Positions 5,708 through 17,314 of a DNA stretch of 64,000 bases are shown in pieces. The notes beneath the pieces were generated by a model. It was not told the DNA's origin and made no database searches. It saw only the letters and a program-made list of their open reading frames with translations. The position numbers were made by a program, and so were the translations under genes. This DNA comes from a virus. Its lineage: Duplodnaviria; Caudoviricetes. Position 1 is the first letter of the stretch. Each line of letters starts with the position of its first letter. Location: IMG/VR virus record IMGVR_UViG_3300011113_000415; one strand, 5' to 3'.

Positions 5708-6178
5708 GTGATGCCATGGATCGAAAATGTAGCCGCCGCAGATGTGCCCCAAAGGCATCATCACGAGGCTGGCGACAATGCCATGCTGATCCAGATCATG
5801 GATCCGTGTCCCACCTGGTGGCCCGCTCCTGCACACAACTTTCGAGAAACACATCGTTTTGAATTTTTGGATGCAGAAGATGGTGATCGTTTTCCTGAAG
5901 AATGTTTGATCAGCGATGCCCAGGCTGAAAAAATTGTAGGCCTGTTGCAACATGCCTTGGCCAATCGCATGAACGTGGTTGTGCATTGTGTGGCAGGATT
6001 GTGTCGCTCAGGTGCAGTGGCTGAAGTTGGCGTGATGATGGGCTTTGATGAGTGTGAACGCACTCGCATACCCAACATTAGAGTCAAGCATAGGTTGATG
6101 AAGGCCTTGGGCTGGACCTATGATGCGAATGAACAGCCAGATGCAGAAGCCTGGCGTAAGATGAACCTAGATTATTAA
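5708..6178 (+). CDS. protein-tyrosine/dual-specificity phosphatase-like protein
   Basis: VHCVAGLCRS = HCxxGxxRS catalytic loop. Confidence 0.85.
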   Translation: MMPWIENVAAADVPQRHHHEAGDNAMLIQIMDPCPTWWPAPAHNFRETHRFEFLDAEDGDRFPEECLISDAQAEKIVGLLQHALANRMNVVVHCVAGLCRSGAVAEVGVMMGFDECERTRIPNIRVKHRLMKALGWTYDANEQPDAEAWRKMNLDY

Positions 6179-7669: not shown

Positions 7670-8860
7670 TCAAACGTAAGGTTTGATCAATTCGTAAAAC
7701 TCAGGAAACGTAGATTCAAAAGACTGGTCGCGCATGCGATCTAAATCTTTTGTCATGTGCCAAAACCATTCCCAAGCATTTACATCATAGGATATGTATT
7801 CAGGTATACTTTGCATCATGAAATTAACTGTGGCAGTATCTTGAAGTATTTTTTCAGCGACTATTTTTTTCAATGACATTGGCATGTGTCGTATATCATA
7901 CTCAGGTGGACTGTAGACAAAATTACAGCCTACTATTATTCCAAATTTTGCTAAATTTTTTTTGATTTCATCAATATAAAATACATTTAGTGGTGTGACT
8001 GTGACACAGATGTTAATTTCTGTGTTGGGATGATTTGCGGTCCAGTCTTTGTAGCGTTGCAGATTTTCAAATACCACGTTAGCGTCAACTGGATATCTAA
8101 TATATTCAAGATGTTTGTGGACATGACTGTCTATGCTAATTCCAATTTTTACATATTTGTATTTGACCAGTGTGTCTAGATATGCTGGGTTCCATATTGT
8201 AGCATTGGTATGAAGTCTTAAACTAACTTTGGAACTCTTGCCAGCATCGGCCACTGTTTTTAATACACGAAACAACCCAGGTGTTAGGAATGGCTCACCA
8301 CCGTATATATCAAAAAACTCCAAGTTTGGTAACCATTGCTCCGTAGTCTCCCATATGGGATTATCTCTATCAAATGCAGATCTTATGCTTTCAAATCGTT
8401 TGGTATACTCTTGTTGTGTGCCTTTAAATCCATCGTGTTCTATCGCAAATTGATAGGCATTGTTATACCAACCTGTACTAGTGGCCGGATTGCACATTCT
8501 ACAGGCAAGATTACAAACGTTGCCAGGTTTCATAATCAGCACACGAGGCTGATCAGGCAATGACTCAAGATGACCAAACATGTGGTTGAATCGCTGTCTA
8601 CTACTGATTTTTCCACTGGCTTCTAGGTCCTGGCAAGGTCTGCAACTTTCAATGGTTTTTCCGTGGTCTAATCCAGCAGCCAACATTTTTCTAGTGGGAC
8701 TAGACCAGGCTTCAGCCAAGGTATTTTTGTCAGCAAACAGCACCTGTTGTTGACGATTGGTAAAACTCCAATTGTTTATGTTGCAGGCACAGAAGTCACC
8801 ATCGTTTTGAATGGCCAGGCCCATATGTGGCATCACACAAAAAGTGTCAGATTTAAGCAT
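7670..8860 (-). CDS. radical SAM protein with N-terminal twitch/SPASM-like domain
   Basis: CNLACRMC, GGEPF, N-terminal FCVMPH..CAC..CRPC; antisense within the tRNA array. Confidence 0.9.
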   Translation of the reverse strand: MLKSDTFCVMPHMGLAIQNDGDFCACNINNWSFTNRQQQVLFADKNTLAEAWSSPTRKMLAAGLDHGKTIESCRPCQDLEASGKISSRQRFNHMFGHLESLPDQPRVLIMKPGNVCNLACRMCNPATSTGWYNNAYQFAIEHDGFKGTQQEYTKRFESIRSAFDRDNPIWETTEQWLPNLEFFDIYGGEPFLTPGLFRVLKTVADAGKSSKVSLRLHTNATIWNPAYLDTLVKYKYVKIGISIDSHVHKHLEYIRYPVDANVVFENLQRYKDWTANHPNTEINICVTVTPLNVFYIDEIKKNLAKFGIIVGCNFVYSPPEYDIRHMPMSLKKIVAEKILQDTATVNFMMQSIPEYISYDVNAWEWFWHMTKDLDRMRDQSFESTFPEFYELIKPYV

Positions 8861-9448: not shown

Positions 9449-9526
9449 GGTCTGTTAGTATAGTTGGCCTAATACGCCTGCCTGTCACGCAGGAGATCAG
9501 GGATTCGAATTCCCTACAGACCGCCA
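9449..9526 (+). tRNA. tRNA-Asp(GTC)
   Basis: cloverleaf, G73, CCA. Confidence 0.93.
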
Positions 9527-9532
9527 AGTTTT

Positions 9533-9595
9533 GAAGCCACATCGCCTGGGCACTTCTCTCAGCAATGAGACACTAGGTCCTGCAACCGTGGCTTC
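9533..9595 (+). promoter_or_regulatory. structured 5' element upstream of feoA
   Basis: nested helices GAAGCCAC/GTGGCTTC, CCTGG/CTAGG, TCTCA-GCAA-TGAGA. Confidence 0.4.
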
Positions 9596-9614
9596 TCCCT
9601 TTATGGAGTTGACT

Positions 9615-9857
9615 ATGACACTACACAATTTGACAGCCGGTGGTGTTGCTATCATTGAAACTGTCGACGGCAACTACAGTGCAAGGTTGAAATCAATGGG
9701 ATTTCGATCAGGACAAATGGTTCAAGTTCTTAGAAGAACCGCTCATGTCATGCATGTTCGTGTTGGTAGCACCGAGTGGGCCATACGTGATCGCGATGCT
9801 GAGTCAGTAAAAATTATTCCGGAAAACCCGAGCAAGGTGCATGGGCGTGACTGTTAA
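9615..9857 (+). CDS. feoA: FeoA (SH3-like ferrous iron transport A) domain protein
   Basis: RLKSMGFRSGQMVQVLRR..MHVRVGSTEWAIR matches the FeoA pattern; GGAG RBS; stop lies inside tRNA-Asn. Confidence 0.8.
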   Translation: MTLHNLTAGGVAIIETVDGNYSARLKSMGFRSGQMVQVLRRTAHVMHVRVGSTEWAIRDRDAESVKIIPENPSKVHGRDC

Positions 9858-9896
9858 TCACTGGTTAGAAGGGTTCGATTCCCTTATCCGGAGCCA
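9818..9896 (+). tRNA. tRNA-Asn(GTT)
   Basis: TCCGGA/TCCGGA acceptor, loop CTGTTAA, G73, CCA. Confidence 0.88.
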
Positions 9897-9900
9897 AATT

Positions 9901-9975
9901 GCCTCTGTAGTATAATGGATAATACACTGGCCTACGAAGCCGGCGATTGTGGTTCAATTCCCCACAGAGGCTCCA
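9901..9975 (+). tRNA. tRNA-Arg(ACG)
   Basis: cloverleaf, CCA. Confidence 0.9.
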
Positions 9976-9976
9976 T

Positions 9977-10050
9977 GCCCCTTTAGTTTAAAAGTAAAAC
10001 AGACGCTTGATAAGCGTCAGTCGGAGGAGCGTTACCTCCCGGGGGTACCA
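9977..10050 (+). tRNA. tRNA-Ile(GAT), non-canonical D and T loops
   Basis: GACGC-TTGATAA-GCGTC; T loop AGCGTTA; CCA. Confidence 0.85.
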
Positions 10051-10071
10051 TGTTTTTAAAAGGAGAATGCG

Positions 10072-10212
10072 ATGAAACGCAAGATAACCGTCCGGCAACG
10101 TAACCCCTTCGTTGCATTGGCCATGAAACGTAAAGCGGGTAGCCATCGAAAGACTAACAAAGCAGTTCGTCGATGGGACAAAGTAAGGGATCGTAATTCA
10201 AAGGTAGAATAG
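10072..10212 (+). CDS. small very basic protein (46 aa; RNPFVALAMKRKAGSHRKTNKAVRR)
   Basis: AAGGAG RBS; stop codon inside tRNA-Lys. Confidence 0.65.
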   Translation: MKRKITVRQRNPFVALAMKRKAGSHRKTNKAVRRWDKVRDRNSKVE

Positions 10213-10260
10213 TGGGCTTTTAACTCATCTATCCCAGTTCGAGTCTGGGCGGTCCTACCA
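10187..10260 (+). tRNA. tRNA-Lys(TTT)
   Basis: cloverleaf, loop CTTTTAA, CCA. Confidence 0.9.
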
Positions 10261-10289
10261 TATAAAAATATATTGTTTCAGTGTATTTC

Positions 10290-10333
10290 TATATGGTGTC
10301 AATAGTCTAGTGGCAAAACCGCGGGTTGTGATT
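10290..10333 (+). repeat. duplicated 5' half of tRNA-His (direct repeat with 12257-12300)
   Basis: 44-nt repeat with 2 mismatches, ending in the anticodon loop. Confidence 0.9.
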
Positions 10334-10348
10334 TAGATATGCTCGAAA

Positions 10349-10918
10349 CTATGCGATTATTTGTTGACTTAGTTCTTTTAATTTAGCCACTGTAGGAGCA
10401 TCATCTTTGAAACCGATTTGTAAGGCAGTTCTTGATCCGTCAACCATGTTTTCAACACTGTGCAAACATTGTGTGCTGAAAAATACCCACTGCCCAACTT
10501 GAAAGCGATGACGACATATTTCAATTAAATTACTGTAGTCTGTGCCAAAGGTAAAAGGTACCCTAATGTAAGGTTGGTTTTTTTCACGCCAGTGTACAGT
10601 ATCAACTTCGGAACCGCCGGTTTCGAATAACCACATTAACGCCCAATAACGCGACTGATCGGTATGCGGAGGTGATATTCCTTTGCCCATAACACTGATG
10701 CCAATATCTTGATTATGATCACTGCCTACATTTTCATCTACCCAGTCTTGGATTCTTTTACTAACTTTATATTTTGTATAATCCATTGGTAAAATTTCTT
10801 TACCATCTCTTATGGTTATCCTAGGTGTACACTTTATGTCATAAGTGTCATTTCCTAAAAAAAGTTGTTCAGGAAATGGGGGCAAGTCAGGGAAAAAAAC
10901 TAATTCATCTTTGGTCAT
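10349..10918 (-). CDS. 2OG-Fe(II) oxygenase/cupin-like protein
   Basis: PHTD...HSV...RTALQ (HxD..H..R) pattern; GAGG RBS. Confidence 0.6.
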   Translation of the reverse strand: MTKDELVFFPDLPPFPEQLFLGNDTYDIKCTPRITIRDGKEILPMDYTKYKVSKRIQDWVDENVGSDHNQDIGISVMGKGISPPHTDQSRYWALMWLFETGGSEVDTVHWREKNQPYIRVPFTFGTDYSNLIEICRHRFQVGQWVFFSTQCLHSVENMVDGSRTALQIGFKDDAPTVAKLKELSQQIIA

Positions 10919-10987
10919 AAAAGCCTCTCTCAACTATTTATCCTGCAAAATCTGCATCTTCAAAATCGCGTATATTAAATATAAATT

Positions 10988-12223
10988 ATGCTTACAAAAA
11001 ACATCTATTTACTGTATCCAGCAGGTTATTCAGGCAACTTCATCAAATGGGCCATTAGTGCCAGTGACATAGATTTGCAAAAAATCACAGTCAATGACCC
11101 TATAAACAAAACGTTTAGTCACAAATACGGTGGGCCCGGGACAACACATTTAGAGGACAGAGTACCCACACATCAAGACATTTATAGGCATCTTATTTGG
11201 ATGGCATACAATCGTCCGGTAGCCAATCAAATCTATATACTTTTTACAACTTCACAATCAATGAGTCAAACCTTAGACGGAATTTTGAGCACAGATCCTG
11301 ATCCATTGATTATTATCATACATGACAACAGAGATAGAGACACAAGAACCTACGGAAATTTAAATGCTATAACCAAATGGCCTACCTACATGCACACTAG
11401 ACAAACTCTTTGGAACTTTGAAAAACAATCAAGATTAGAATACAGTTTGATGACAAATCATGACTTTTTCAATTGTGAAAATGATATGAATTTGAGAAAT
11501 ATGATTGCTCTGAAGAGTTTTGCATGGCTAGTAGAACTTGATCCGTTTGACGATCAGTCAAAAAATCAATACCTTGAGGATTTGTTAAAAAATAAACTTT
11601 GGTTTGATACGAGACAGCAATATCAACCACATGAATTGCTGCCGCACATGTATGCGGTACATGAAGCACTGCCAAATAATGCAGTTCATCAACTGAGTTG
11701 TAAAGATGTGGTCAGTGAAAATTTTCCAAATATTTTATATGATATTTTAAAGACCAGTGGTTGTTGTAGTGAATTTGATATATCACCAGTCAAACAGATA
11801 CATGAAAAGTATATCTCTGCTCAGAAAAATTTAGATTGGTTCTCTTCAATTGCGCATTGGAGAAAAACTGGTTATCTTGATCAATACCTAGTAAGTCATG
11901 CAGTCATTCAAGGCTTTGTAATTCAAGAAATTTTAGAAAAGTTGAAATTCATTGATTACATCAAGTTTGATCCACATTACAAATGGTACGATTTTTATCA
12001 GGCTGTTCGTGACCAGGGTTGGCCGGATTGTGATCAAGAAAAAGATTTTTTGACATTGCCTTTACATATTAGAGAAGAATTAATTACAAAATTTAATTAC
12101 AAATTTGAACCTATACAGGTACAAAATAATCAAATTTTAAAAGCATTAGAAAATTGGGAATCAATGTCTATACAAGAAATCAATGATTTGTATCTACAAA
12201 GTGATGTTTGGTCTATTTATTAA
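10988..12223 (+). CDS. hypothetical protein, possible P-loop/sulfotransferase-like N-terminus, with C-terminal FY..RD..WPDC module
   Basis: long AT-rich ORF; YPAGYSGNF; WYDFYQAVRDQGWPDC. Confidence 0.75.
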   Translation: MLTKNIYLLYPAGYSGNFIKWAISASDIDLQKITVNDPINKTFSHKYGGPGTTHLEDRVPTHQDIYRHLIWMAYNRPVANQIYILFTTSQSMSQTLDGILSTDPDPLIIIIHDNRDRDTRTYGNLNAITKWPTYMHTRQTLWNFEKQSRLEYSLMTNHDFFNCENDMNLRNMIALKSFAWLVELDPFDDQSKNQYLEDLLKNKLWFDTRQQYQPHELLPHMYAVHEALPNNAVHQLSCKDVVSENFPNILYDILKTSGCCSEFDISPVKQIHEKYISAQKNLDWFSSIAHWRKTGYLDQYLVSHAVIQGFVIQEILEKLKFIDYIKFDPHYKWYDFYQAVRDQGWPDCDQEKDFLTLPLHIREELITKFNYKFEPIQVQNNQILKALENWESMSIQEINDLYLQSDVWSIY

Positions 12224-12261
12224 ACAAAAAACATCGTAATTCCTTAATTTATCAATTATAT

Positions 12262-12336
12262 GGTGTCCATAGTTTAGTGGCAAAACCGCGGGTTGTGATT
12301 CCGCTATCATGAGTTCGATTCTCATTGGATACCCCA
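12262..12336 (+). tRNA. tRNA-His(GTG)
   Basis: G-1:C73, loop TTGTGAT, CCA. Confidence 0.92.
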
Positions 12337-12337
12337 G

Positions 12338-12412
12338 GGATGAGTAGCATAATGGTAGTGCGCCTCCTTCATACGGAGTCAGGTGGTAGTTCGATTCTAC
12401 CTTCATCCACCA
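12338..12412 (+). tRNA. tRNA CAT (elongator Met or Ile2)
   Basis: cloverleaf, loop TTCATAC, paired 1:72, CCA. Confidence 0.88.
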
Positions 12413-12415
12413 TGA

Positions 12416-12613
12416 TTATTCGCCGGAGCGGTTGGCCACTTCTTGTGCGTCACCCATGACTTCAGGCGGGGCACCTGGCACATTGTTTGTGGTTGGGTCC
12501 AGCAACATTTCATTTGCCGCAAGTGCCGCAATTAGGTAATGTACTTTTTTCTCAAGATCCCGAAGTGCGCTGTTGGGATCAATACGTGTGTCTCTAGCAA
12601 AAAAATTGTCCAT
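12416..12613 (-). CDS. hypothetical protein
   Basis: AAGGA RBS; antisense insert in the tRNA array. Confidence 0.65.
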   Translation of the reverse strand: MDNFFARDTRIDPNSALRDLEKKVHYLIAALAANEMLLDPTTNNVPGAPPEVMGDAQEVANRSGE

Positions 12614-12646
12614 AATAGTTTCCTTTGTAGAGTATTCAACACGTTT

Positions 12647-12730
12647 GCCCCGGTGGTGTAATGGCAGCCACGATGGTCTTAGAAACCATTGCTTAACAGC
12701 GTGTCGGTTCGAGTCCGACCTGGGGCACCA
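12647..12730 (+). tRNA. tRNA-Leu(TAG)
   Basis: cloverleaf, long variable arm, A73, CCA. Confidence 0.93.
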
Positions 12731-12736
12731 TGATAT

Positions 12737-12810
12737 GGCTCGTTAGTATAGTGGCAGTGCGGAAGTCTCCAAAACTTCTAGCGGTGGTTCGATTCCATCA
12801 CGAGTCGCCA
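12737..12810 (+). tRNA. tRNA-Trp(CCA)
   Basis: GAAGT-CTCCAAA-ACTTC, G73, CCA. Confidence 0.92.
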
Positions 12811-12817
12811 AAAATTT

Positions 12818-12892
12818 GGGCTGTTGGTATAGTTGGGAACACAGTGGCTTTGCAAGCCTCAGTCCCCGGTTCGAACCCGGGACGGTCCACCA
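12818..12892 (+). tRNA. tRNA-Ala(TGC)
   Basis: G3:U70 pair, A73, CCA. Confidence 0.92.
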
Positions 12893-12900
12893 TAAAATTC

Positions 12901-12988
12901 GGAGGTATCGCATAGCGGTCGATTGCACGGGACTGTAAATCCTGCGCCCTTAGGGGCCTCGGTGGTTCAAATCCATCTACCTCCACCA
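12901..12988 (+). tRNA. tRNA-Tyr(GTA)
   Basis: cloverleaf with long variable arm, CCA. Confidence 0.93.
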
Positions 12989-12991
12989 CTT

Positions 12992-13065
12992 GCCTCGTTA
13001 GTTTAATGGTAGAACTCCGTCTTTACACGGCGGTTACGGCAGTTCGATTCTGTCACGAGGTACCA
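12992..13065 (+). tRNA. tRNA-Val(TAC)
   Basis: cloverleaf, CCA. Confidence 0.93.
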
Positions 13066-13094
13066 TTGACACATAATTAAATATTGTATATAAT
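13066..13094 (+). promoter_or_regulatory. internal consensus sigma70 promoter
   Basis: TTGACA-N17-TATAAT. Confidence 0.85.
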
Positions 13095-13109
13095 ACAACA
13101 AGAAACAAT

Positions 13110-13187
13110 GCAACGGTGGCAGAGTGGTCCAATGCATGGGATTGCAAATCCCAAAAACCGCTGGTTCAAATCCAGCCCGTTGCTCCA
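13110..13187 (+). tRNA. tRNA-Cys(GCA)
   Basis: cloverleaf, U73, CCA. Confidence 0.93.
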
Positions 13188-13189
13188 TA

Positions 13190-13432
13190 CGTTCCAGCGT
13201 CACTGGATAGTCCGACCCAGACGATGAGAAGTGCAATGACATGCACGGGTGGTTCTGAAGAGGCGAATCTTCACAGTAGAGATACTGCGGTCCAACCAAA
13301 CCGGCGTTAGCAACACGAGAGCGGTCCCTGTCGGGAAGCGGGTGGAGGGTGTAAGTGATGAATAGACTAGTTGGGGCAACTTGACGAAATTTCTGATACA
13401 CTATAATTACCGCCGGGGGACGTCAGAGCAAT
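13190..13432 (+). ncRNA. GC-rich, probably pseudoknotted RNA of unknown class
   Basis: long-range pairs 13252-58/13423-29, 13301-06/13411-16, 13324-28/13417-21 (crossing), plus several hairpins. Confidence 0.6.
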
Positions 13433-13439
13433 CAAATAC

Positions 13440-13514
13440 CGCGGGATGGAGAAGCGGTAACTCGTCAGGCTCATAACCTGAAGATCGGCGGTTCGATTCC
13501 GCCTCCCGCAACCA
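13440..13514 (+). tRNA. initiator tRNA-fMet(CAT)
   Basis: C1:A72 mismatch, loop CTCATAA, CCA. Confidence 0.9.
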
Positions 13515-13517
13515 ACT

Positions 13518-13591
13518 GCCCTTTTAGTTAAATGGTATAACAGTTGATTTGTAATCATCAATTGGCAGTTCGATTCTGTCAAGGGGCACCA
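13518..13591 (+). tRNA. tRNA-Thr(TGT)
   Basis: cloverleaf, CCA. Confidence 0.92.
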
Positions 13592-13596
13592 CAATT

Positions 13597-13845
13597 ATGC
13601 TAGATTATATCATTACTTTTGTTGCTGTGTTTGCTACTGATTTGATTTACATTCTTTTTGTAAAGTCAATTCAGGACAACCAGCCTTGGCGTGCCGCATG
13701 GTGGTCAATGGTTTGTACACTCACAGCCTCAGTGGCCGTGATCAACTACATTGAAAATCATTGGGCCTTGATTCCGGCCCTGGCAGGTGCATTCTTCGGT
13801 GCCTATGTAGGCATGAAGTACAAGAAAAAAATCATCTCCGATTAG
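13597..13845 (+). CDS. small multi-TM membrane protein
   Basis: three hydrophobic segments; stop codon inside tRNA-Pro. Confidence 0.75.
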   Translation: MLDYIITFVAVFATDLIYILFVKSIQDNQPWRAAWWSMVCTLTASVAVINYIENHWALIPALAGAFFGAYVGMKYKKKIISD

Positions 13846-13911
13846 TATAGCCTGGTAGTACCCGTGGTTTGGGACCATGAAGCGGGAGTTCAAATCTCTC
13901 ATCGGAGACCA
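13836..13911 (+). tRNA. tRNA-Pro(TGG)
   Basis: CGTGG-TTTGGGA-CCATG, CCA. Confidence 0.9.
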
Positions 13912-15200: not shown

Positions 15201-15902
15201 TTACTTGACTGTGGCCAATCCAAGGTTCCGAAGAATACAAATGTACATCCAACCTATGTCAAACTCCCACCAGTTTCTACTGAGGCGAGCACTGGCTGGA
15301 TCCAAGTGGTGGTTGTTGTGTAGTTCTTCGCCACCAATCACGATACCCCAGGGACTGATATTTCTACTGAGATCTCGGGTTTCTCCATTTCTATAGCCCC
15401 ACCAGTGTGCTAGACCGTTGACGACACCAGCGGCCCAGAACGGTATCCATATTATCTGTATGAGCCAAATTATGGCGCCAACCCAACCAAAGAGCCAGAG
15501 GTTGAACACAAGGCAAATGCCAAGCCCAAGTCCGGAGTGAGGAGTGTATATGTTACGCTCCAACCAGTCACTAGGAGTGCCACGACCATATGTATCAACC
15601 ATGTCCGTATCTTTTGCGGCTTCATTGTATAACCATGCTCCTCGAAACAAAACTTGCCAGATTCCATACACATGTGGACTGTGCGGATCACCTGCCCGAT
15701 CACTGTATCTATGATGCTTGCGGTGTATGGCCACCCATTGCTTTGTGACCATGCCTGTTGTGAGCCACAGCCAGGTTCGCATGAAGTGTTCTATTAGGGG
15801 ATGAAATGTCACAGATCGGTGTGCTTGTGATCTATGCAAATACAGTGTGACGCAGGCTATGGTGATGTGTGTGGCGATTAAAGTGTATAGGAGTTCTGTC
15901 AT
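15201..15902 (-). CDS. membrane fatty acid (delta-9 acyl-CoA/acyl-lipid) desaturase
   Basis: three His boxes HRSQAH, HRKHH, HNNHH plus TM segments. Confidence 0.93.
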   Translation of the reverse strand: MTELLYTLIATHITIACVTLYLHRSQAHRSVTFHPLIEHFMRTWLWLTTGMVTKQWVAIHRKHHRYSDRAGDPHSPHVYGIWQVLFRGAWLYNEAAKDTDMVDTYGRGTPSDWLERNIYTPHSGLGLGICLVFNLWLFGWVGAIIWLIQIIWIPFWAAGVVNGLAHWWGYRNGETRDLSRNISPWGIVIGGEELHNNHHLDPASARLSRNWWEFDIGWMYICILRNLGLATVK

Positions 15903-15991: not shown

Positions 15992-16067
15992 GCCCCTTAA
16001 ACTAATCTAGTGAAAGTGCGGGACTGAAAATCCCGAAAGCCAGGAGCGTAACCTGGAGGGGGCACCA
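15992..16067 (+). tRNA. tRNA-Phe(GAA), non-canonical T loop
   Basis: CGGGA-CTGAAAA-TCCCG; T loop AGCGTAA; CCA. Confidence 0.88.
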
Positions 16068-16686: not shown

Positions 16687-16751
16687 AACAGCGTAAACTG
16701 CGATTCAGAAAAGGATTCAAGACGGCGGGGCAGTGCCGCCCAGGTCCACCA
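16687..16751 (+). ncRNA. ssrA: two-piece tmRNA, acceptor piece
   Basis: GAC-GGCGG-GGCAGTG-CCGCC T arm then CAGGTCC-A-CCA, complementary to 17134-40 with G3:U70. Confidence 0.85.
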
Positions 16752-16763
16752 TAAGGAAGTTTG

Positions 16764-17132
16764 ATGCGTATTACTGAGATTGCTAATACAAAACTATCAT
16801 TTAAAACAACAAAAGGCAGTAATGCTATTGGTGTTGAAATGAACGTTGACGGGCAATACGCAGGGATGTTTCAATACGATGCAGGTAACGGAAGAAGTTT
16901 AGTAGAGTTAGATCCAGACTTTCAAGGCAAAGGTTTGGGTAAAATTCTAATACTAAAAGAAATCTATACTGCTATCATGTCTGGATTAGACTATGTAGAA
17001 GATGAGTCACGCACCCAAGCATTTGATAATGCTATGAATAGTTTGGCAGACGCTGGTTACATAGTCAATGATGACGAGTATTGGTATGTCACTAGTGAAG
17101 GTGAGCAATATCTCAAACAAGTTTCTTTATGA
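16764..17132 (+). CDS. GNAT-like acetyltransferase inside the tmRNA intervening segment
   Basis: ELDPDFQGKGLGKIL acetyl-CoA motif A; AAGGA RBS right after the CCA; stop 1 nt before tmRNA G1. Confidence 0.75.
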   Translation: MRITEIANTKLSFKTTKGSNAIGVEMNVDGQYAGMFQYDAGNGRSLVELDPDFQGKGLGKILILKEIYTAIMSGLDYVEDESRTQAFDNAMNSLADAGYIVNDDEYWYVTSEGEQYLKQVSL

Positions 17133-17133
17133 T

Positions 17134-17314
17134 GGGCCTGACACAGGATCGATTGGGTCAAGAGTAGGGATAGTGGCGCTCGGTAAGGTAGAAGCCGTTA
17201 GGGTTGGGAGTTCCCAGCCGAAGAAGCAAAAAAAGTAAAGGCAAACGACTCACAGTTCCAATTGGCCGCGTAAAGTAGCCTAGGGTAGGAAATACCTCGT
17301 AACAGAAACCACCA
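17134..17314 (+). ncRNA. ssrA: two-piece tmRNA, coding piece (tag ANDSQFQLAA)
   Basis: GGGCCTGA..GGATCGA 5' end; tag frame 17241-17273 GCAAACGAC...GCCGCGTAA; TTGGGTC pairs with GATTCAA 16714-20. Confidence 0.9.

Follow-up and report, generated by a model that had tools for sequence, protein, structure and literature searches.

Open reading frames that end inside tRNA genes of a phage tRNA array, and a small basic protein that RNase P may place under trans-translation

How is a protein made from a gene whose stop codon lies inside the tRNA gene that follows it, and can such an arrangement serve regulation? The question is raised by a stretch of viral DNA of 64,000 nucleotides (nt), hereafter the window (Duplodnaviria, Caudoviricetes; IMG/VR record IMGVR_UViG_3300011113_000415), in which three open reading frames (ORFs) run into tRNA genes: one for a FeoA-domain protein, one for a basic protein of 46 amino acids (aa) and one for a membrane protein. 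A reading made from the letters of this DNA, here called the sequence-only reading, had proposed that tRNA processing turns the three messages into non-stop mRNAs and that the three genes make up one translation-status circuit. Comparison with related phages leads us to set the genes apart: the small basic ORF may be under a control like that of ArfA and BrfA, with RNase P making the non-stop mRNA, and the FeoA and membrane-ORF overlaps would be tolerated compaction, a reading that we hold with about even confidence. The three ORFs and the tRNAs they enter are as follows.

9615 to 9857, plus strand: FeoA-domain ORF, 80 aa (Pfam, sequence, and the ratio of nonsynonymous to synonymous substitution rates, dN/dS)
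9818 to 9896, plus strand: tRNA-Asn(GUU), atypical, 79 nt, with an encoded CCA end (ARAGORN; conservation)
10072 to 10212, plus strand: 46-aa basic ORF (sequence, family alignments, dN/dS)
10187 to 10260, plus strand: tRNA-Lys(UUU) (ARAGORN; Rfam, 59.8 bits)
13597 to 13845, plus strand: 82-aa membrane ORF (sequence, weak holin-like matches, dN/dS)
13836 to 13911, plus strand: tRNA-Pro(UGG) (ARAGORN; Rfam, 55.1 bits)

ARAGORN and the sequence place all three stop codons inside tRNA-Asn, tRNA-Lys and tRNA-Pro, exactly where the sequence-only reading had put them. The FeoA stop (TAA, 9855-9857) consists of the last anticodon base and the adjoining AA of the CTGTTAA anticodon loop of tRNA-Asn, an overlap of 40 nt; the stop of the 46-aa ORF (TAG, 10210-10212) coincides with nt 24-26 of tRNA-Lys(UUU), an overlap of 26 nt, and that of the membrane ORF (TAG, 13843-13845) with nt 8-10 of tRNA-Pro, an overlap of 10 nt. 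Since ORFs and tRNAs overlap on one strand, they are co-transcribed, and each RNase P cut at tRNA position +1 would therefore leave an upstream mRNA without a stop. The mechanical premise of the earlier proposal, that tRNA processing would yield non-stop mRNAs, thus stands, given same-strand overlap, a stop lying past the RNase P site and what is established of RNase P biology. The predicted cut leaves 67 complete codons of FeoA, 38 (plus 1 nt) of the small ORF and 79 of the membrane ORF, and falls at or just past the conserved part of each protein (profile positions 1-72 of 74 for FeoA, the 38-aa core for the small ORF and 79 of the 82 residues of the membrane ORF). All three ORFs are under purifying selection (dN/dS below 1): FeoA has values of 0.22-0.38 at synonymous divergences of up to 0.85, the small ORF values of 0.06-0.67 at up to 1.5, and the membrane ORF a value of 0.045 (against contig L121) at up to 0.36. 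The syntenic relative L003 keeps the three overlaps despite a synonymous divergence of 0.36-0.85.

It is hardly credible, and largely refuted by these results, that the overlaps are an artefact of ORFs that are not genes or of miscalled tRNA boundaries. An open frame of 38 codons entering a tRNA is admittedly not rare by chance, and one of the three tRNAs falls short of the Rfam model. tRNAs were accepted at a covariance-model score above 29 bits for RF00005, plus an ARAGORN cloverleaf for tRNA-Lys and tRNA-Pro; on these two, with the scores listed above, both programs agree. tRNA-Asn lies below the threshold, its best score (26.7 bits) being to tRNA-Sec, and of the copies in the window, L003, L004 and L005 ARAGORN calls only the first two. 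Its D-loop has 11 nt, and its anticodon stem contains a mismatch. Its identity of 90-100% across 36 viral IMG/VR contigs, its CCA end, its anticodon loop and a compensatory T-stem change in contig L005 nevertheless argue for a functional yet atypical tRNA. The protein genes speak against an artefact as well, by their dN/dS and by their conserved Shine-Dalgarno sites and start codons. FeoA matches PF04023 with 44.7 bits (cut-off 23; E = 1.5e-11) over the profile positions given above; its ATG at 9615 follows a GGAG at 9605-9608, the start and the Shine-Dalgarno site are conserved in L003 and L005, and relatives use GTG at the same position. The small ORF is preceded by AAGGAG (10060-10065), and its homologs number in the hundreds; among them are GC-rich host genes in which the protein sequence is retained.

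Regarding the question whether homologs keep the overlap, the answer differs from gene to gene. It is positive for the 46-aa ORF (41 of 41 modules, with 17 clusters of tRNA-Lys and co-occurrence with a phage transfer-messenger RNA, tmRNA). For the two others the overlap is restricted, that of FeoA to the window and three contigs related to it, and that of the membrane ORF to three contigs, its homologs elsewhere having their own stops. The conserved core of the 46-aa protein comprises residues 1-38. A word-based search gave 16 relatives in which this N-terminal core is conserved and the tails are very different, and a scan of viral contigs gave 80 loci. Searched exhaustively with a profile, the family comprises 635 representative clusters (E ≤ 1e-3); its members are 42-192 aa long, the long ones arising from translation straight through tRNA-Lys and further tRNAs. 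An asparagine, RKAGSH, two lysines and an arginine (N, RKAGSH, K, K, R) are invariant in the family alignment, and Lys and Arg interchange at several positions. Among cultured phages, tblastn yields weak matches only in Acidovorax phage ACP17 and Variovorax phage V45v66.

The junctions were surveyed at 81 loci, reduced to 64 non-redundant ones. Every copy without a stop before the tRNA is followed by tRNA-Lys(UUU): this holds for 41 of 41 non-redundant modules, in which the stop lies inside the tRNA (31 modules) or beyond it (10). Copies with their own stop precede other tRNAs (Met, Arg, Thr, Val or Lys-CUU), mostly stopping 4-84 nt ahead of them, and the homologs of ACP17 and V45v66 have no tRNA nearby. 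From the invariant His codon to tRNA position +1 the distance is 36-50 nt, with a single case of 62 nt. The 41 modules contain 37 distinct tRNA-Lys sequences; grouping these at 85% identity yields 17 clusters, and the median identity between pairs is 62%. The upstream neighbours of the modules differ. Read-through tails range from 2 to 42 codons in the modules and up to about 150 in database entries; they are unconstrained, variable junk. In a poorly resolved tree of the core, the own-stop forms appear as several derived lineages within a stop-less majority, with 7 state changes. The 46-aa ORF looks like a conserved design: trimmed to a core of 38 aa, it has lost its own stop and continues in frame into tRNA-Lys(UUU). 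As for the two cultured phages, the ACP17 homolog (L001, 2962-3126) is unannotated and seemingly has no ATG at the family start, and the V45v66 homolog (L002, 2956-3114) shares 56 nt with the end of the ORF upstream of it.

The family extends to bacteria. A pattern-based scan of 185,579 species genomes found three contigs of metagenome-assembled genomes (labelled Rhodoferax, Polaromonas and Pseudomonadota), and a profile search matched 45 of 151 Comamonadaceae genomes, on chromosomal contigs with no tRNAs nearby. These host homologs, mostly of 54-56 aa and with their own stop, follow the pattern MxSARKxKLKL..PRNPLVAAA.QRKAGSHRKS...ALKKQL (L187-L195); they are annotated as "hypothetical protein" in Polaromonas, Ramlibacter and Variovorax, match no Pfam or NCBIfam family and show no consistent ArfA-style hairpin before the stop. 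Their gene frequently lies directly after an EamA transporter gene. In a joint alignment, the stop-less phage core ends exactly ahead of the C-terminal ALKKQL segment of the host proteins, and the 46-aa ORF looks like a phage copy of this uncharacterised small basic host protein.

Four more features of the same strand, among them the tmRNA, bear on the three genes.

9449 to 9526, plus strand: tRNA-Asp(GUC) (ARAGORN; Rfam, 64.7 bits)
9977 to 10050, plus strand: tRNA-Ile(GAU), directly upstream of the small ORF (Rfam tRNA model, 43.9 bits at 9977-10047; anticodon and CCA read from the sequence)
13518 to 13591, plus strand: tRNA-Thr(UGU) (ARAGORN)
16690 to 17273, plus strand: two-piece (permuted) tmRNA, tag ANDSQFQLAA (Rfam RF04321, 80.2 bits; tag read from the sequence)

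The tmRNA, whose score is well above the RF04321 threshold of 47 bits and whose tag ends in LAA followed by a stop, lies 6.5 kilobases (kb) downstream of the small ORF, in the same array. Large phages are known to carry a tmRNA gene within a tRNA array, and the window resembles them in this respect. The tmRNA goes along with the stop-less form of the small ORF: it is present in 6 of 6 complete genomes with that form (G205-G209, G215) and, when fragments and the window are included, in 20 of 31 records, usually 3-6.5 kb downstream on the same strand. None was found in the 13 records with the own-stop form, among them four complete or near-complete genomes searched with two tmRNA models (G210, 100% complete; G223, 96% complete; ACP17; V45v66). 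Fisher's test gives p = 0.005 for the complete genomes and p = 5e-5 for all records, which are related by descent. We know of no earlier description of a tmRNA co-occurring with a stop-less small ORF fused to tRNA-Lys, and a literature search returned no paper that ties the tmRNA genes of large phages to stop-less ORFs. Between the acceptor piece of the window tmRNA (CCA end at about 16752) and its tag-coding piece lies a 123-aa ORF (16761-17132) with weak GNAT and winged-helix matches.

What could the arrangement do? Protein genes are packed tightly between the tRNA genes, and roughly one in five enters the next tRNA and borrows its stop. Once RNase P has cut at +1 and released an upstream fragment without a stop codon, ribosomes stalled at its 3' end would be rescued by tmRNA-SmpB, with a tmRNA of the host or of the phage, and the product would be tagged and degraded; normal termination would be left to those ribosomes that pass before the tRNA is processed. 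For the small ORF, the relevant form is probably the 38-aa core made from the RNase P-made non-stop mRNA, and its level would rise once trans-translation is saturated. This would parallel ArfA and BrfA, which are regulated via non-stop mRNA and kept low by tagging until trans-translation is saturated, the read-through full-length product of ArfA being useless (PMC8012679).

The small ORF resembles ArfA of Escherichia coli in being small and very basic and, if the proposal holds, in having an active form that comes from an mRNA losing its stop by RNA processing; a further likeness exists at the level of motifs only (N-x-x-x-A-L, LFR and a basic stretch around the invariant His). It differs in the proposed agent, which is RNase P at a tRNA 5' end instead of RNase III or a terminator hairpin, in being phage-encoded and in having no detectable homology to ArfA. 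Alignment by hhalign with the E. coli protein and with the ArfA alignment gave a probability of 0.2-0.3% (P = 0.22), a six-frame search of the L003 contig with the ArfA family (PF03889) gave no match, and the small ORF has no match in NCBIfam, in PHROGs or PADLOC, or in sequence and profile searches of the PDB; the ESM Atlas gave sub-threshold leads only (DUF7230, 0.82-0.89; an ArfA cluster, 0.76). On the host side, 61 genomes sampled from the probable host family yielded no PF03889 match, and searches for diverse ArfA matched 2 of 201 sampled members of the class. BrfA of Bacillus and ArfT of Francisella are independently invented small basic rescue factors that depend on a release factor, BrfA being made from non-stop mRNA and ArfT having about 40 aa. 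They show that such factors are not recognisable by sequence. Like ArfA, they occupy the empty mRNA channel and bring in RF1 or RF2 so that the peptide is released. They have other sequences and occur in other taxa, the BrfA message is cut short by an intrinsic terminator, and neither factor is tied to a tRNA gene.

That the peptide binds the ribosome and is possibly a rescue factor is a speculative guess. Going further, the RN-x-(F/L)-V...RKAGSH(R/K)K proteins could be a new, independently evolved ribosome-rescue or ribosome-status family of Comamonadaceae and their phages, the gene of which tmRNA-bearing jumbo phages would have rewired through RNase P and tRNA-Lys; we put this forward as a doubtful suggestion. 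Another precedent is the tRNA punctuation of mitochondria, where a polycistronic precursor has ORFs that adjoin tRNAs or run into them, tRNA excision sets the mRNA ends and polyadenylation completes partial stop codons. Here, unlike in mitochondria, A residues added to the predicted 3' ends (...AT, ...A and ...AT) would create no stop.

Is it unusual for a gene to run into a tRNA in such arrays? In about 150 related array regions, we considered ORFs with 45 codons or more that either overlap a tRNA on the same strand or end no farther than 150 nt from one. As a proxy for true genes, a family had to be represented by three or more distinct members; with the small basic family left out, this gave 29 families. 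Overlap was found for 26 of 145 distinct members (18%), by 7-34 nt and including homing-endonuclease-like genes; the remaining 119 stop before the tRNA, many of them at a distance of 1-6 nt. Against this background, overlap at three of the window's roughly six same-strand junctions between an ORF and a tRNA has a probability of about 0.075, and the number of overlaps is therefore not remarkable by itself. Overlap as such is a routine result of tight packing in these arrays. Homing-endonuclease-like ORFs enter the next tRNA by 7-34 nt repeatedly (e.g. L100, 1740-2414; L010, 6850-7359; L068, 3402-4013). Overlaps in general appeared commoner at tmRNA-bearing loci (11 of 26 against 4 of 28, p = 0.03), an enrichment that we do not retain: about 5 of the 11 are the FeoA and membrane ORFs of the window finding itself, and the rest, about 6 of 21 against 4 of 28, would by arithmetic estimate lose significance.

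Compaction of this kind, without dedicated regulation, is most likely what the FeoA and membrane-ORF overlaps represent. The FeoA gene abuts tRNA-Asn only in L003, L004/L005 and the window, though tRNA-Asn occurs in 36 contigs; the FeoA proteins of L003 and L004/L005 have 67-75% identity, and the overlap is retained within this lineage and confined to it. The 5' end of the FeoA message would be set by 3' processing of tRNA-Asp. tRNA-Asp is followed directly by a structured RNA of about 65 nt (9533-9598), which ends 10 nt short of the FeoA Shine-Dalgarno site, is also found in L138-L185 and matches no Rfam family. Its apical stem covaries (TCTC/GAGA, CTTC/GAAG, CCTC/GAGG, GCTG/CAGC), and an exact 23-mer of it, CACTAGGTCCTGCAACCGTGGCT, is present in 48 IMG/VR contigs. 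Because tRNA-Glu comes 11 nt later in most contigs, FeoA looks like an insertion behind this RNA.

The membrane ORF encodes 82 aa with three hydrophobic segments. Its similarity to holins stays below the family cut-off (Phage_holin_9, PF23809: 18.6 bits against 27, E = 0.0017), and a PHROG holin (phrog_7045) matches only at E = 0.036; translations read by eye, with no family search run, revealed no evident endolysin-like neighbour beside its homologs in L122 and L124. The overlap with tRNA-Pro, by the same 10 nt, occurs in the window, in L003/L121 and in L041. The homologs of L138 and L056 stop 4-6 nt ahead of a different tRNA, and those of L122, L123 and L124 (70-39% identity) have ordinary stops and no tRNA nearby, one of them being followed by a terminator. 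Upstream, tRNA-Thr ends 5 nt before the ATG, and the sole Shine-Dalgarno-like sequence, GGGG at 13583-13586, lies inside it, which suggests that the membrane ORF is translated mainly from the unprocessed precursor.

Several points weigh against ArfA-like control even for the small ORF. The tail has at most 5 codons in 24 of the 41 modules, so that a ribosome terminating on an unprocessed transcript would release almost the same protein and non-stop synthesis is not required, and the existence of own-stop versions implies that the protein works without the device. Nineteen members gave no Pfam match at E ≤ 10, ArfA (PF03889) included, their motif being RKAGSH(R/K)K and not KGKGSY...KH, and the EamA transporter next to the host gene says nothing on translation. 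The link to tRNA-Lys in particular could point instead to a function related to this tRNA, and the ORF and its tRNA-Lys may simply be an inherited module. Finally, the correlation with the tmRNA is confounded by descent: the tree gives just two supported independent pairs, with which a sign test cannot reach significance. Because the records are related and only two independent contrasts are supported, the tmRNA association is suggestive, not demonstrated. All this leaves room for pure compaction of the three genes, in which small deletions removed the stops, co-transcriptional translation precedes processing, and the ORF-tRNA-Lys unit and the tmRNA were co-inherited in one jumbo-phage lineage with no functional link. 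Such an account is possible, though we lean away from it. It would agree with the 18% of junctions that overlap and the many gaps of 1-6 nt in related arrays, with the shortness of most small-ORF tails, with a tmRNA association that independent pairs do not support and with the restriction of the two other overlaps to particular lineages. It is harder to reconcile with tRNA-Lys(UUU) standing downstream in all 41 stop-less modules though upstream neighbours and the tRNA-Lys sequence itself vary, with the 26-150 junk residues that a 38-aa protein would gain in 10 of the 41 modules and in many database entries, and with own-stop versions that are derived on the tree and belong to records where a tmRNA was not found.

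The exclusive tie of the stop-less form to tRNA-Lys(UUU) would also be expected if the small ORF served this tRNA, as a translated leader tuning its maturation or through a peptide acting on or protecting it, for instance against anticodon nucleases; in defence by anticodon nucleases, phage tRNA-Lys is known both as a target and as a counter-measure. The Lys/Arg-rich composition of the ORF, its fixed spacing to the tRNA and the tRNA-Lys(CUU) that follows two own-stop lineages fit this idea. We nonetheless find it unlikely: conservation concerns the amino-acid sequence beyond Lys codons (the invariant residues named above), Lys and Arg swap at several positions, homologs in ACP17, V45v66 and host chromosomes lie far from any tRNA, and PADLOC gave no match. 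Less probable still is the circuit of the sequence-only reading, in which the FeoA protein, the basic peptide and the membrane protein are all degraded as long as tRNA processing and trans-translation function and all build up if either fails. The retention of the three overlaps in L003, the RNase P site at the end of each conserved protein part and the tmRNA in the same array made it attractive. Nothing links the three genes into a unit, however: their overlaps differ in evolutionary depth and are within the background in number, homologs of FeoA and of the membrane ORF normally have their own stops, and no shared regulatory element was seen. For these reasons we give up the circuit and keep to ArfA/BrfA-like control of the small ORF.

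The array itself belongs to a freshwater jumbo-type phage, the hosts of which are probably Comamonadaceae. It holds at least 26 densely packed tRNA genes on one strand of the window, 24 called by ARAGORN and two by Rfam alone, namely the tRNA-Ile(GAU) at 9977-10050 (Rfam match at 9977-10047) and one at 15992-16064, both of which ARAGORN misses. DNA of the window is present in public lake, river and viral-fraction metagenomes; four runs that bear the label RNA-Seq consist of contigs, probably of DNA, and yielded no usable ends. Its relatives are found among IMG/VR contigs and reach 350 kb, and a nucleotide search found no near-identical DNA in cultured phages. A few genes within the array lie on the minus strand: a conserved 65-aa ORF between tRNA-Met and tRNA-Leu (12416-12613; counterpart in contig L005 at 5750-5947), which has no family match, and fatty-acid desaturase-like and radical SAM/SPASM genes (15201-15902 and 7670-8860).

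Taken together, the comparison makes the small basic ORF a credible variant of ArfA/BrfA-type control, with truncation by a tRNA gene and RNase P, and supports the arrangement and not yet the function. Should non-stop mRNA made by RNase P indeed gate the small protein, tRNA processing would be a regulatory truncation device and, after RNase III cleavage and an internal terminator, a third way to place a backup factor under trans-translation. Phages would then handle ribosome rescue through a linked pair, the tmRNA and a backup factor, and an unrecognised rescue factor would exist in a bacterial family whose sampled genomes gave no ArfA. If compaction is all there is, annotators are still warned that ORFs overlapping tRNAs in phage arrays can be real genes. 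Moreover, as about one fifth of array ORFs would lose their stop upon excision of the neighbouring tRNA, a simple and testable reason is at hand for why these phages carry a tmRNA.

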